A DNA stretch of 20,494 bases from assembly GCA_043818055.1 (NCBI GenBank), contig JBDRGF010000139.1:1-20494 (forward strand), written 5' to 3'. Both the position numbers and the translations under genes were made by a program. Positions 6,088 to 8,929 of this stretch are shown here, one piece after another. The notes under the pieces are model-generated. The model did no database searches. It saw nothing but the letters and a program-made list of their open reading frames with translations, and had not been told where the DNA came from. This stretch comes from Pseudomonadota bacterium (GTDB lineage: Bacteria; UBA10199; 2-02-FULL-44-16; JBDRGF01). The stretch's first letter is position 1; each line of letters begins with the position of its first letter.

Positions 6088-6522
6088 TTAATTCTTTGGA
6101 AATGCCTTTCCCTCTTCCTGTGCAGCTGAGGGCAGCGAGTTGTGCCATTGAACTATCCGCCATTTGCTATTTAAATTCTCAAGCACGCATGTCACCCTGC
6201 CGGGAATATTCAAACTCTTTCCATCAACCTTTGCAACAACTACAAAGTCAGCAGCCACCCACGAGACCTTTTCGAAAACCGAGACCGATATCCACTGCCA
6301 TTCCCATTTGAGCTCCTCGGATTGTTCAAAGTCGCGCTGCAGCTGTTTTCGAATTTCATTAGGGCCAATACGCTTCTCATCCGAACCGGTGCCTAAGAAT
6401 ACTATATCATGCTCCGGCGCAAAGAGCCCCATGATACCATCGATGTCCTTGTACATGTAATACTGATTAAACTGGTTTAAAACCTCCATCACAGCTGATT
6501 CAGTCTTAGTGTCGGCTTTCAT
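6088..6522 (-). CDS. SnoaL-like / NTF2 family protein
   Basis: DIDGIMGLFA, IVFLGT...RIG, GRVTCVL...WRIVQWHNS pattern; SD AAGGAG upstream. Confidence 0.85.
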   Translation of the reverse strand: MKADTKTESAVMEVLNQFNQYYMYKDIDGIMGLFAPEHDIVFLGTGSDEKRIGPNEIRKQLQRDFEQSEELKWEWQWISVSVFEKVSWVAADFVVVAKVDGKSLNIPGRVTCVLENLNSKWRIVQWHNSLPSAAQEEGKAFPKN

Positions 6523-6703
6523 AAAACACTCCTTTTTTATAAGGCTTTTGTTAACAACTTTTTACAGTAAGAATCAATATTAATCTAGTGCTTCGTCAAT
6601 TTAATTTTCACCAGTGGAGATATGATAATATTAAATTGTTTCGAGAGCTTGTGCCCTTCCTGACTATAAATAATTTAATAGATGAGGTGCTAGCTTAAAA
6701 AAC

Positions 6704-6733
6704 TTGATTATCTCTCTCCATCATATATAGAAT
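6704..6733 (+). promoter_or_regulatory. Putative sigma70 promoter upstream of the tRNA-Ser array
   Basis: TTGATT (6704-6709), 18-bp spacer, TAGAAT (6728-6733), just before the first tRNA fragment at 6747. Confidence 0.45.
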
Positions 6734-6746
6734 CCCTTGCTTTATC

Positions 6747-6791
6747 GGAAGGATGCCGGAGTGGTTGCGGGTCCCCGAAGGGGAAAAACCG
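6747..6791 (+). pseudogene. tRNA-Ser 5' fragment A with hairpin at the anticodon region
   Basis: GGAAGGATGCCGGAGTGGTTG, then TCCCCGAAGGGGA, then AAAACCG; homologous to the 5' half of 7405-7495. Confidence 0.7.
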
Positions 6792-6820
6792 TGAGAGCTA
6801 TTTGAAAATTTGTTGCAATC

Positions 6821-6962
6821 GGAGAGGTGCCGGAGTGGTTGCACCACGGGCATAGAAAGCTGTAACGACTAGCGACGATTAAAACCGCCGCCAGCATAAC
6901 ATCTTTCTAAACGGCTGCGGTCTCGTCAGCCAGAGGCTGATCCGCCTTAGGCGGAAAAACCG
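6821..6962 (+). pseudogene. tRNA-Ser 5' fragment B with insertions in the D loop and anticodon loop
   Basis: First 21 nt are identical to the intact tRNA. A ~68-nt insert (6842-6909) follows, then GCGGTCTCG, two 15-nt palindromes (6926-6955) and AAAACCG. Confidence 0.8.
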
Positions 6963-6993
6963 TGAGAGCTATTTGACAATTGAGCAATCGGGT

Positions 6994-7111
6994 GGAGGGA
7001 TGCCGGAGCGGTTGAACGGGGCGGTCTCGAAAACCGCTGTCCCGCTTTGCGGGACCCAGGGTTCGCCCTGTCATACGACAGGGCGCCCTGTTGAATAACA
7101 GGGCGAATCCC
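6994..7111 (+). pseudogene. tRNA-Ser(CGA) copy C with a 40-nt double-hairpin insertion in the T loop, lacking the 3' acceptor strand
   Basis: Complete D, anticodon (CGA) and variable arms; GGGTTCG, insert 7066-7105, AATCCC; no acceptor 3' strand or CCA follows. Confidence 0.88.
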
Positions 7112-7122
7112 GGACAAATTAT

Positions 7123-7389
7123 ATGTACTACGTTTATATATTACACTTAGCGAACAACCAATTATACACAGGTTTTACGAGCGATTTAAAAAGAAGGATT
7201 AAAGAGCACGAAGGGGGAAAAGTTGAATCAACGAAACATAAAAGACCGTTAAAGCTGCTTCACTACGAAGCTTATCTCCTGGAGAGCGATGCGCGAAGAA
7301 GAGAAAAATATTTGAAAGGAAGTGAAGGTAAAAATTCATTGAGAAAACAGATTCGGGATATTTTGTTGAGCTTAAATAAAGAACTTTGA
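7123..7389 (+). CDS. Small stand-alone GIY-YIG nuclease family protein
   Basis: YYVYIL...LYTGFT...RRIKEH...ARRREKYLK, 88 aa. Confidence 0.92.
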   Translation: MYYVYILHLANNQLYTGFTSDLKRRIKEHEGGKVESTKHKRPLKLLHYEAYLLESDARRREKYLKGSEGKNSLRKQIRDILLSLNKEL

Positions 7390-7404
7390 CATTTCATTTC
7401 AATC

Positions 7405-7495
7405 GGAGAGGTGCCGGAGTGGTTGAACGGGGCGGTCTCGAAAACCGTTGTCCACTTTTAGTGGACCCAGGGTTCGAATCCCTGCCTCTCCGCCA
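7405..7495 (+). tRNA. tRNA-Ser (anticodon CGA), intact, CCA encoded
   Basis: Acceptor GGAGAGG/CCTCTCC plus GCCA; anticodon loop CT-CGA-AA; long variable arm GTCCACT-TTT-AGTGGAC; T arm CAGGG-TTCGAAT-CCCTG. Confidence 0.97.
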
Positions 7496-7550: not shown

Positions 7551-7757
7551 AATCATCCTTCGAAGAAGGCTGATGTGGAACTGAGCGGCAACATCAACCT
7601 GTTTGTTCCCGGTGACAAGAGGGTCTTAGACGATATGCAAACAGTAGATGGTATTAAAATTGTCAACAACATCCAGCTCTATCTCGATCTTTACAAATAT
7701 CCGGCGCGTGGACGAGAGCAGGCAGAACACTTAAGGGAGCAGGTGATTCAGACATGA
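7551..7757 (+). pseudogene. C-terminal fragment of a type IV toxin-antitoxin AbiEi-like antitoxin/regulator
   Basis: GNINLFVP...IVNNIQLYLDL...RGREQAEHL matches my recollection of the AbiEi_2-type C-terminus. An in-frame stop at 7548-7550 removes the N-terminus. Confidence 0.6.
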
Positions 7758-8929
7758 AGAAAAAAACCGGCAAAAAACCTGTTAAAGCGAGCTCCTCTGC
7801 AGATGGCTTATTTAAGCGGATTGTCACTATTTTAGAACAGGCCAGGGCCAATGTTGTCCGGTCAGTCAACAGCAATATGGTAACGGCCTATTGGCTTATT
7901 GGCCAAGAAATTGTTCAGGAGCTTCAAAAAGGACAGGAACGGGCGGAGTATGGTGAACGGATCATTAGCAATTTATCTGATCGTCTGAATAGACGGTATG
8001 GCAAGGGTTTTTCGACCACCAATCTTTGGTACTTTAGACAATTTTACATAACCTTCAAGAATCGAAAGCCTGAAATTCTCCACCCAGTGGGTGGAGAATC
8101 TGAAACCCATAAAAAACTCCGCCCAATGGGTGGAGTTTCGCTTACAGGATTTCACCCTAACCTTTCTTGGACGCACTATCGTGCGCTGATGCGTGTTGAA
8201 AATACATCCGCCCGAAATTTTTATGAAGAAGAAGCGGTACGCTGTGGTTGGGACAAAAGAACTCTGGAACGACAGATTTCGACTCTTTTTTATGAACGAT
8301 TACTGAAAAGCCAAGACAAAAAGGGAATGCTTAAAGAAGTGGTCTCCAAAAATGACTCCCTCCAACCTATTGATGTACTGAAAAACCCCTATATCCTCGA
8401 ATTTCTCAATCTGCCAAATGATCCGAAACTGCGTGAATCAAAATTAGAGGAAGCCCTCATCGCAAACTTAAGACAGTTCCTTTTGGAATTGGGAAAAGGT
8501 TTTTCGTTTGTTGCCCGACAAAAACATATCCGCATTGGCAGCAAAGATTTTTTCGTGGACTTGGTTTTCTACAATTATCTCCTCAAATGCTTTGTGCTGA
8601 TTGATCTTAAGGTTGGCGATCTGACTCATCAAGACATTGGACAAATGGACGGTTACGTTCGGCTCTTCGAGGAGCAATGCAAAACTCCCGAAGACAATCC
8701 AACTATCGGGCTTATTCTCTGTTCCGACAAAGACGATGCGATTGCGCATTATTCTGTTTTAAAGGAAAGCCGGAAGTTATTTGCCTCACGATATAAACTG
8801 GTTTTACCCGATGAGGAAGAGTTGCGCAAAGAGATCGAAAGAGAACGCCGGCTCATTGAGAACGCCTTTGAGCCTGTTACGAAAAAATCTCTTTCTTCGG
8901 GCAAAGTTGGGAGAAAAAAGAAAAAGTAA
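7754..8929 (+). CDS. DUF1016/YhcG family PD-(D/E)XK nuclease-domain protein
   Basis: YWLIGQEIV, RAEYG, GKGFS..NL, LSWTHY, KNPYILEFL, FLLELGKGFSFVARQ, VDLVFYN, LIDLK, GQMDGYV, PTIGLILC. Confidence 0.93.
   Translation: MKKKTGKKPVKASSSADGLFKRIVTILEQARANVVRSVNSNMVTAYWLIGQEIVQELQKGQERAEYGERIISNLSDRLNRRYGKGFSTTNLWYFRQFYITFKNRKPEILHPVGGESETHKKLRPMGGVSLTGFHPNLSWTHYRALMRVENTSARNFYEEEAVRCGWDKRTLERQISTLFYERLLKSQDKKGMLKEVVSKNDSLQPIDVLKNPYILEFLNLPNDPKLRESKLEEALIANLRQFLLELGKGFSFVARQKHIRIGSKDFFVDLVFYNYLLKCFVLIDLKVGDLTHQDIGQMDGYVRLFEEQCKTPEDNPTIGLILCSDKDDAIAHYSVLKESRKLFASRYKLVLPDEEELRKEIERERRLIENAFEPVTKKSLSSGKVGRKKKK
8075..8138. repeat. Two in-frame 25-bp palindromes (39-bp period) inside the DUF1016 gene
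   Basis: ATTCTCCACCCA-G-TGGGTGGAGAAT (8075-8099, perfect arms) and AAACTCCGCCCA-A-TGGGTGGAGTTT (8114-8138, 11/12). Confidence 0.9.

Follow-up and report, generated by a model that had tools for sequence, protein, structure and literature searches.

Micro-hairpins in decayed tRNA-Ser copies beside a small GIY-YIG nuclease gene are members of dispersed repeat families

Introduction

Single-domain GIY-YIG nucleases of the Ssn type (cd10448) cut only single-stranded DNA (ssDNA), next to a cognate hairpin repeat termed NTS or SRM, according to Chenal et al. 2025 (PMC11893778). In the same paper the repeat flanks the ssn gene and is dispersed in the genome, SsnA of Neisseria binds the NTS hairpin only as ssDNA and cuts a few bases upstream, and the layout of gene plus repeat is likened to a mobile element. 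Here we describe a 20,494-nucleotide (nt) stretch of DNA, referred to as the window, which is an entire contig (C139) of the Pseudomonadota assembly GCA_043818055.1 (G000; 2.93 Mb, 166 contigs, 93.6% complete). It holds a gene for an 88-amino-acid (aa) GIY-YIG nuclease between three truncated copies of tRNA-Ser and one intact tRNA-Ser gene, and the truncated copies are interrupted by micro-hairpins. These micro-hairpins are members of dispersed repeat families and not local scars.

Several other systems share part of this arrangement. SegB, encoded in the tRNA gene cluster of phage T4, is a free-standing GIY-YIG homing endonuclease, and mobile endonuclease open reading frames (ORFs) of fungal mitochondria carry a replacement piece of the host gene. 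REPIN elements were reportedly described by Bertels and Rainey in 2011, and cyanobacterial repeats of 21-27 nt with exact insertion points are said to have been reported by Elhai and colleagues in 2008. REPs inserted inside target palindromes are described in passages of Di Nocera et al. 2013 (PMC3733652), and a passage citing earlier work states that SDR5 inserts exactly between the third and fourth bases of HIP1 (PMC4390886). Mitochondrial hairpin and double-hairpin elements with conserved stems and variable loops, located in intergenic regions and rRNA genes, appear in the portions of Erpenbeck et al. 2009 (PMC2800124) consulted. Our literature search, which did not cover subscription journals, returned no description of a tRNA-nested GIY-YIG cassette or of the 30-nt element characterized below. 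Small GIY-YIG genes and GC-rich palindromes are among the commonest unexplained features in genomes of uncultured bacteria, and at this locus they are tied together at base resolution.

Results

Hairpins interrupt truncated tRNA-Ser copies

Sequence and alignment identify three partial 5′ copies of tRNA-Ser (A, B and C) upstream of the GIY-YIG ORF. The features of the locus are as follows, with ^ marking the insertion point.

6747..6791, + strand: pseudo-tRNA-Ser copy A; about 21 nt of tRNA 5′ end, CGGG, the hairpin TCCCCGAAGGGGA (6772-6784) and AAAACCG
6792..6820, + strand: tail after copy A (TGAGAGCTATTTGA...CAATC), repeated after copy B
6821..6962, + strand: pseudo-tRNA-Ser copy B; tRNA positions 1-21 (6821-6841), a 66-nt insert, the anticodon stem-loop with the 30-nt double hairpin, and the end AAAACCG
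6926..6955, + strand: 30-nt double hairpin, TCAGCC-AGA-GGCTGA plus TCCGCC-TTA-GGCGGA, between G35 and A36 of the anticodon loop of copy B
6994..7111, + strand: pseudo-tRNA-Ser copy C; acceptor 5′ strand through T-loop, with a two-hairpin module in the T-loop; homology stops after AATCCC
7066..7105, + strand: T-loop module; two hairpins of 18 nt with loops ATAC and GAAT and a CG after each, at TTCG^AATCC of copy C
7123..7389, + strand: GIY-YIG nuclease gene; ORF of 88 aa, single domain, Pfam PF01541 over residues 1-71 (E 5e-15)
7405..7495, + strand: intact tRNA-Ser(CGA), called by aragorn and Rfam (56.2 bits), free of hairpins

An earlier note on this DNA, made from the sequence alone, had claimed that removal of 6926-6955 or of 7066-7105 restores the tRNA exactly, and this is the case. 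Cutting out 6926-6955 joins GCGGTCTCG to AAAACCG, which are contiguous both in the intact tRNA-Ser(CGA) and in copy C, and cutting out 7066-7105 joins GGGTTCG to AATCCC, which gives back the exact T-loop. The junction in copy B is exact and shows no target duplication. As the restoration of the tRNA is exact, the two A's that follow the hairpin in copy B are target and not element. With CG on either side, the T-loop insert can be placed only to within 2 nt, and its two perfect 9-bp stems are as described in the note, provided that the shared CG dinucleotides are counted. The 13-mer TCCCCGAAGGGGA at 6772-6784 is likewise present, but the place it occupies is only approximately equivalent, and its removal leaves a loop that is not exactly restored. 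By sequence, the inserts are not derived from the flanking DNA. Because the uninterrupted sequence is exactly known, the dead tRNA copies record where hairpins have landed.

Folded as DNA, the 30-mer at 6926-6955 forms two 6-bp hairpins at -11.3 kcal/mol (z -4.9; 1 of 200 shuffles at least as good), and the 42-mer at 7064-7105, folded into two long hairpins, reaches -17.5 kcal/mol (z -7.3; 0 of 200 shuffles at least as good). The 13-mer at 6772-6784 is not significant alone (z -1.6; 30 of 200 shuffles at least as good). Perfect hairpins with a stem of at least 9 bp and a loop of 3-5 nt number 385 in the genome, as opposed to 48-65 in three dinucleotide shuffles, which argues that two adjacent long hairpins are not a product of chance.

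A single tRNA is called in the window, by aragorn and by Rfam alike, and according to a genome-wide aragorn search the gene at 7405-7495 is the sole tRNA-Ser(CGA) of the assembly. (The tRNA-Ser anticodons that aragorn finds in the assembly are GCT, GGA and CGA; TGA is not found, possibly a gap, the assembly being 93.6% complete.) Neither aragorn nor the Rfam tRNA model recognizes copy A, B or C as a tRNA, even at E 0.5. All three lack the 3′ acceptor strand by sequence and alignment; copy A also lacks the variable arm and the T-arm, and copy B lacks the T-arm. Over the parts that remain, copy A is identical to the intact gene at 14 of 14 nt (tRNA positions 8-21), copy B at 26 of 26 nt including 5 nt upstream of the tRNA (6816-6841 vs. 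7400-7425), and copy C at 40 of 42 nt (7001-7042 vs. 7412-7453). The 66-nt insert of copy B (6842-6907) lies in the D-loop region and is not a hairpin. The variable arm of copy C reads CCCGC/GCGGG where the intact gene has CCAC/GTGG, and these compensatory changes argue that copy C is not a fresh duplicate of the intact gene; it is a formerly working allele of different descent.

The truncations bear directly on the idea that the interrupted copies still work as tRNA genes, their intron-like inserts being excised at the RNA level. The inserts do lie in loops, and at one Ignavibacteriaceae locus (L052), where the element sits in the D-loop, deletion of the 30-mer leaves a complete tRNA-Ser(GGA) that aragorn calls. 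In the window, however, no copy retains its 3′ acceptor strand, A and B have no T-arm, all three go uncalled and an intact tRNA-Ser(CGA) adjoins them, and we consider this explanation close to untenable.

Copies A and B are followed by related tails, with 28 of 29 positions identical between 6782-6810 and 6953-6981. In a three-way alignment, both tails (TGAGAGCTATTTGA..CAATCGG) have TTTGA.A.TT and CAATCGG in common with 7362-7429, and they probably match the last codons of the GIY-YIG ORF and the spacer before the tRNA, although the homology is short and suggestive. On this alignment copies A and B would likely be older units from which the ORF was deleted. The locus is a decayed tandem array in which the unit consists of a partial tRNA with a hairpin near its end, where present a GIY-YIG ORF, and the next tRNA copy; the last unit (copy C, ORF 7123-7389, tRNA 7405-7495) is the only one to retain its ORF.

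The double hairpin is dispersed within and beyond this genome

The first half of the 30-mer has five exact occurrences in this genome, and the double hairpin as a whole is present at about 14 places with up to 5 substitutions and at 10 with up to 2 mismatches. At the stricter threshold it occupies 127 distinct places in 16 of 41 genomes of relatives, with maxima of 52 in G010 and 36 in G026, and a reversed-pattern control gave 0 matches in the same genomes. An exact-pattern scan of one genome per species returned at least 121 stretches from many phyla; taxa among the matches listed are Patescibacteria, Ignavibacteria, Bacteroidota, Gamma- and Deltaproteobacteria, Omnitrophota, Verrucomicrobiota, Elusimicrobia, Planctomycetia and Binatia. 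Ten stretches with the double hairpin come from viral contigs, and neither a GIY-YIG gene nor a tRNA is present within 400 nt in any of them. The element is also shared by contigs of many organisms in four public metagenome runs, the contigs diverging at 6925/6926 (left) and 6957-6959 (right). The left border is therefore fixed, and the two A's that follow the element are common to most copies.

Most copies in this genome are lodged in the apex of other palindromic repeats, which are themselves abundant without the insert. The host palindrome GGGCAGGTTT^AAAACCTGCCC has 48 uninterrupted copies in the genome and CCTTCCCCCGTC^AAGGGGGAAGG has 30; a third host repeat is a TGTC-tagged, SRM-like hairpin. 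The proposal that the palindromes form a family of very small elements is thus borne out, as they recur elsewhere inside sequences whose uninterrupted form also exists, and with 10 places in this genome and 52 and 36 in two relatives they are not confined to the locus.

Some further contexts were observed. In Ignavibacteria and some viral contigs (L053, L071, L103, L184, L191, L192 and others) the double hairpin stands in the middle of arrays of tandem ACTTTCN-type heptamers that run in the same direction on both sides. Elsewhere in this genome (G000:C73:10678-11333, L159), a gene for DUF559, a Vsr-like endonuclease, has a double hairpin on both sides, each in a CCTTCCCCC-type palindrome; in 20 relatives no DUF559 gene was seen to adjoin a double hairpin, and this stays a single case. 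In one relative many copies are located at contig ends.

This recurrence speaks against two explanations in which the hairpins arose or are maintained where they stand. Repair scars, formed by fold-back synthesis or by repair of hairpin-capped breaks after nuclease cuts, had been offered in the note as an alternative, and they would account for the perfect stems and for the CG dinucleotides shared at unit borders. Local scars would not share sequence, however, and copies of the 30-mer match exactly or almost exactly across 127 places in 16 of the 41 relatives, as they do in at least 121 cross-phylum stretches; no insert sequence derives from its flanks. The presence of the same 30-mer in many phyla contradicts scars, and we judge them highly improbable.

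Alternatively, immobile hairpins could be selected in place, for instance as a means of disabling or insulating the displaced tRNA, as a barrier to read-through, or as marks of RNA processing sites before the nuclease gene. Compensatory stem substitutions with retained loops would agree with this, as would the frequent position of hairpins 9-30 nt upstream of a GIY-YIG start and the contigs from an RNA library over 6500-6960, for which DNA carry-over is possible. It is harder to reconcile with the very different surroundings of the 30-mer, which include intergenic spacers, loops of other repeats, heptamer arrays and viral contigs at up to 52 places per genome. No T-run follows the hairpins 3′ in the sequence, and convergence on an identical 24-base core in many phyla is implausible. 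Selection in place therefore seems to us quite unlikely.

Insertion occurs at an oriented Y-Y^R-A site

A preference for TCG^AA, proposed in the earlier note from the two clean sites of the window, was not found. The genome contains 8,951 TCGAA sites, and 1 of its 13 copies of the element, the window's own, lies at such a site. The flanks of 120 cross-phylum copies among the matches listed instead give the oriented consensus Y-Y^R-A and show no target duplication, with a pyrimidine at -2 in 114 and at -1 in 98 (G at -1 in 14), a purine at +1 in 108 and A at +2 in 100.

Flanks that pair strongly (E of -6 or below) surround 8 of the 13 copies in this genome, as opposed to 3% of positions drawn at random from the genome and 25% of flank pairs after permutation. 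Across phyla an energy measure gives 12 of the 120 listed copies vs. 1.3% of permuted pairs; by perfect-stem pairing of at least 5 bp (15 of 120 listed copies vs. 8.7 expected), real and permuted flanks are hardly separated. We also considered the general rule that the element always lies in a hairpin loop and rejected it, the 12 of 120 listed copies being a minor subset. A parent hairpin is a frequent, not an obligatory, context.

Of 123 cross-phylum occurrences among the matches listed, 10 have an intact tRNA no more than 120 nt away. When flanks were joined in silico and placed on predicted tRNAs at approximately 150 loci, homology to a tRNA spanned the junction at 17 of them, 14 being among the 121 cross-phylum loci listed. 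These insertions fall in the anticodon loop (5), the T-loop (3), the D-loop (2) and the D-stem at 12|13 (6); one more is a doubtful 14-nt stem match. The view that hairpins are inserted in tRNA loops calls for qualification: their carriers are truncated pseudo-copies, probably produced by a nuclease cassette, and 6 of the 17 mapped insertions are at D-stem 12|13. Read in the orientation of the element, the flanks are constant (TTG^AA, TTC^GA, CTG^AG and similar), the element being sense in the anticodon loop and mostly so in the T-loop, and antisense at most 12|13 sites. The loops of a tRNA are also the A/T-rich parts of its gene, so that in these data a preference for loops is inseparable from one for Y-Y^R-A.

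A tRNA-nested nuclease cassette recurs in relatives

The nearest solved structures of the 88-aa protein are the UPF0213 proteins 1zg2 and 1ywl, followed by SLX1, and no NCBIfam family was matched. The layout found in the window, a partial 5′ tRNA with a hairpin insert, a small GIY-YIG ORF and an intact tRNA of the same identity, is repeated at loci L164, L173, L174, L176, L177 and L180 of relatives. In relatives the cassette sits on tRNA-Gln, Met, Asn and Ser, with the following arrangements.

G007 (protein 69% identical): tRNA-Gln 1-55 (55/55 identical to the intact gene), two hairpins at TTCG^AATCC, 8 tRNA bases, ORF, and intact tRNA-Gln right after the stop codon
G001: tRNA-Ser(TGA) 1-35, double hairpin at CTTG^AAAAC (the loop position of copy B), GIY-YIG gene, intact tRNA
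G028 and G010: tRNA-Asn-like 5′ end 1-12, double hairpin at AGCT^CAGTGG, GIY-YIG gene; in G028 then an intact tRNA-Asn
G011, G016 and G040: tRNA-Met 1-19, insert of about 100 nt, positions 20-31, GIY-YIG gene, intact tRNA-Met; two tandem units in G040

At 8 of 16 GIY-YIG loci chosen by score alone, a figure that leaves out three loci picked for their double hairpin, aragorn places a tRNA within about 120 nt.

The T-loop module was searched for in 93 genomes of the class with the pattern GTTCG-N7-ATRC-N7-CG-N7-GAAT-N7-CGA. It is rare, with matches in 2 genomes, that of the window and G016. In G016 the module (loops ATGC and GAAT) is carried by a 3′ piece of tRNA-Asp that follows the intact tRNA-Asp by 110 nt, and no ORF accompanies it. 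The module in G007 is part of the tRNA-Gln 5′ copy before the 69%-identical GIY-YIG gene and has an extra hairpin nested in its second loop. The second hairpin reads CGCCCTGTT-GAAT-AACAGGGCG in the window, CGCCATGCC-GAAT-GGCATGGCG in G016 and CGCCCCGCT-GA[nested hairpin]GAAT-AGCGGGGCG in G007. The module therefore recurs at TTCG^A in three host tRNA types, Ser, Asp and Gln. Its loops ATRC and GAAT and three CG dinucleotides are conserved, and its stems differ at several positions yet are perfectly paired. Conserved loops and co-varying stems on different tRNAs would thus mark a structured module of the cassette lineage with T-loop specificity, and they speak for its inheritance as a unit with that lineage.

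Two other nuclease genes have structured RNAs as neighbours. A second GIY-YIG gene of this genome (G000:C31, about 27385-28070; L163:886-1570, minus strand; PF01541, E 1.9e-21) stands after a tRNA-like 3′ end, which is itself preceded by a group I intron (Rfam RF00028, 85 bits). The nuclease gene is outside the intron, and the intron-bearing tRNA gene was missed by aragorn. At L173:140-918 (G011:C58) a GIY-YIG gene abuts the 5′ side of an RNase P RNA gene (RF00010, 236 bits), so small nuclease genes are also found beside structured RNA genes other than tRNAs.

Double hairpins are enriched near GIY-YIG genes

The hairpins had been suspected of a link to small GIY-YIG genes, and their linkage is indeed non-random. 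In the 41 genomes, 5 of the 127 double-hairpin places lie within 200 nt of one of 105 GIY-YIG matches vs. about 0.09 expected, an excess of about 50-fold; the expectation follows from GIY-YIG neighbourhoods making up about 0.07% of the 93 Mb searched, and the related genomes are not independent. The five places are on G000 C139 (the window), G000 C3, G010 C21, G001 C23 and G028 C67. A GIY-YIG N-terminal motif is present within 120 nt at 2 of the 121 cross-phylum loci listed (L072 and L091), where 0.11 are expected, and at L037 and L109 a GIY-YIG start after the double hairpin was recognized by eye.

The clean, oriented insertions would be accounted for equally well if the hairpins were independent, non-autonomous ssDNA mini-transposons, of the REPIN or miniature IS200/IS605-like kind, moved in trans by a Y1 (RAYT-like) transposase. 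Dead tRNAs and palindromes would then be neutral sites that expose Y-Y^R-A, and the GIY-YIG gene a mere co-resident at tRNA genes. The exact copy B junction without target duplication and the two terminal hairpins of the element suit this explanation, as do flanks that stay constant when the orientation of the element flips with the tRNA site. So does nesting in loops of repeats with abundant empty forms, 8 of 13 copies having strongly pairing flanks vs. 3% at random. REPs inside palindromes are on record in passages of PMC3733652, and genes of PF01797 (Y1 transposase) are present in this genome and in 35 of the 41 relatives. In G000 and G026, however, no PF01797 gene has a double hairpin next to it, and the nearest in G010 are 1.8 and 3.2 kb away, which is not above chance. 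Neither GTAG nor CGTC, the tags of known REP families, stands at the foot of the units TCAGCC...GGCTGA and TCCGCC...GGCGGA; GTAG- and TGTC-tagged repeat families are present elsewhere in the genome. With respect to IS200/IS605-type insertion the traits are mixed: copy B has no duplication and the flank consensus is oriented (Y at -2 in 114/120 and A at +2 in 100/120 listed copies), the target is degenerate, and no transposase link was found. A homologous T-loop module at the same position before a 69%-identical nuclease on a different tRNA points to joint inheritance with the nuclease, and adjacency to GIY-YIG genes is about 50 times expectation. We regard independent mini-transposons as a serious possibility that is nonetheless rather doubtful.

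Sequences around the array and contigs from RNA

Directly upstream of copy A, at 6585-6692, lies a 108-nt repeat with imperfect terminal inverted repeats starting CTAG. It has at least six more copies in the genome at 87-92% identity, one of them a tandem dimer at C104, and a 105-nt "goes back" joint is seen in some contigs of the metagenome runs; the repeat resembles a miniature inverted-repeat element. Just 3′ of the tRNA, about 180 nt (7571-7756) match G010 and G018, which belong to other families, at 84-89% DNA identity, and the adjoining DNA does not; this stretch may be a further mobile piece. The next gene (7754-8929) encodes a YhcG/DUF1016 PDDEXK nuclease.

One metatranscriptome run contains exact contigs over 6500-6737 and 6767-6922 (the upstream repeat and copies A and B) and none over 6992-7400 (copy C and the nuclease gene). 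DNA carry-over is possible in these contigs, and no claim of transcription rests on them.

SRM-type repeats, with the motif HGTCWY..YYVSBRH..WNVSBRG..RNCYNB, number 39 in this genome vs. 5-9 in shuffles.

Discussion

We hold the description of the locus, that is its anatomy and the recurrence of its hairpins, with great confidence. As to what the hairpins are, our best explanation, which we rate about as probable as its negation, is that they are copies of dispersed families residing in three dead tRNA-Ser copies, where they likely serve as ssDNA handles of a nuclease cassette and are not independent hits at TCG^AA. The hairpins would best be read as modules of a selfish, tRNA-nested cassette akin in type to the pairs of Ssn nuclease and SRM, with movement that we infer. 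That hairpin and nuclease form a cognate pair is put forward tentatively, with somewhat more doubt than conviction, and the copying mechanism outlined next is more speculative still.

As in SsnA, the 88-aa nuclease would bind the hairpins in ssDNA and nick nearby. When single-stranded, tRNA genes and other palindromes would fold and expose A/T-rich loop apexes, making them preferred substrates. Such sites would then acquire the hairpin, and less often the ORF, when repair copies from a filled donor, and the outcome would be a plugged, displaced tRNA copy beside a working one.

A number of observations weigh against the proposed link between hairpin and nuclease. GIY-YIG enzymes hydrolyse DNA, and to our knowledge they are not known to join strands; spread would therefore need host repair, which we assume. 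Most double-hairpin places in the relatives (122 of 127) are not beside a GIY-YIG gene, and counts of the element do not track counts of the gene, since G010 and G026, with 52 and 36 places, have 5 and 6 GIY-YIG matches. The nucleases found next to the same 30-mer share only about 40% identity, which is awkward for a tight cognate pair. The hairpin is mostly upstream of the gene on the same strand, but G028 has it inverted and G000:C3 has it downstream. The published SRM motif was not found closer than 1.5 kb to any of this genome's three GIY-YIG genes, and the 88-aa protein, whose nearest solved relatives are UPF0213 proteins, may belong either to the Ssn clade (cd10448) or to UPF0213 (cd10456).

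Direct traces of movement were also sought, and their lack belongs on the same side. The four public runs yielded no empty-site allele, i.e. no deletion of 6926-6955 or 7066-7105; as contigs of such runs drop rare variants, missing empty alleles are no evidence of absence. Comparison of congeners gave no clean pair of filled and empty sites and no readable boundary of a single element. In one case a repeat cluster of about 200 nt that includes a variant of the element fills a spot where the genes of the sister genome abut; in another, the element stands between a stop codon and a terminator, where the sister genome carries 23 bases of unrelated sequence. In the remaining comparisons synteny ended at the cluster or there was no match.

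In its broadest form, which we advance as a conjecture with the balance tilted against it, the 30-nt double hairpin would be among the smallest mobile DNAs, present in many phyla and inserting at Y-Y^R-A sites of folded ssDNA in fixed orientation and without target duplication. Its spread would be driven by tRNA-nested nucleases that consist of a bare GIY-YIG domain, and together these would form a new class of selfish element with the cloverleaf of the tRNA gene as its landing pad. If the nuclease does recognize the hairpins as ssDNA, site-specific single-strand nucleases of the Ssn type would gain new specificities, partial tRNA duplicates in many phyla would be explained, and a 30-base element that crosses phylum boundaries would be defined. 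There is also a practical side, in that such arrays break assemblies and risk misannotation as tRNA fragments or tiny ORFs.

Among described repeats, the cyanobacterial SDR family is similar in being mobile-looking, about 20-30 nt long, nested, and possessed of exact, sequence-specific insertion points, but SDR repeats are confined to cyanobacteria, and we know of no nuclease cassette or tRNA link for them. The mitochondrial double hairpins are comparable as small single or tandem double hairpins; they are organellar and unrelated in sequence, and the passages on them do not include tRNA-loop targeting or a nuclease cassette. With REP, BIME and REPIN elements the hairpins share short extragenic palindromes in many copies, the occurrence of doublets, and nesting in loops of palindromes with abundant empty copies. 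They differ in having units of 15 nt, no GTAG or CGTC tag, the same core across phyla, positions inside tRNA-derived sequence, and no RAYT link found.

The layout of the locus finds parallels among nucleases. SegB and the fungal mitochondrial ORFs likewise combine a GIY-YIG gene placed among tRNA or host genes with a displaced partial copy of the target beside the working one. Those enzymes, however, have a catalytic domain joined to a separate DNA-binding domain (about 200 aa or more for the Seg type), cut duplex DNA and come without hairpin modules, whereas the protein here is a bare catalytic domain of 88 aa. Unlike Ssn/SRM pairs, in turn, the window has hairpins that fall outside the published SRM search motif, which has no match within 1.5 kb of the three GIY-YIG genes, and its nuclease gene lies between truncated and intact tRNA copies, tRNA being unmentioned in PMC11893778. 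What the window has in common with the Ssn/SRM system is a single-domain GIY-YIG protein of about 90 aa together with GC-rich hairpin repeats that stand beside its gene and are dispersed in tens to hundreds of copies.

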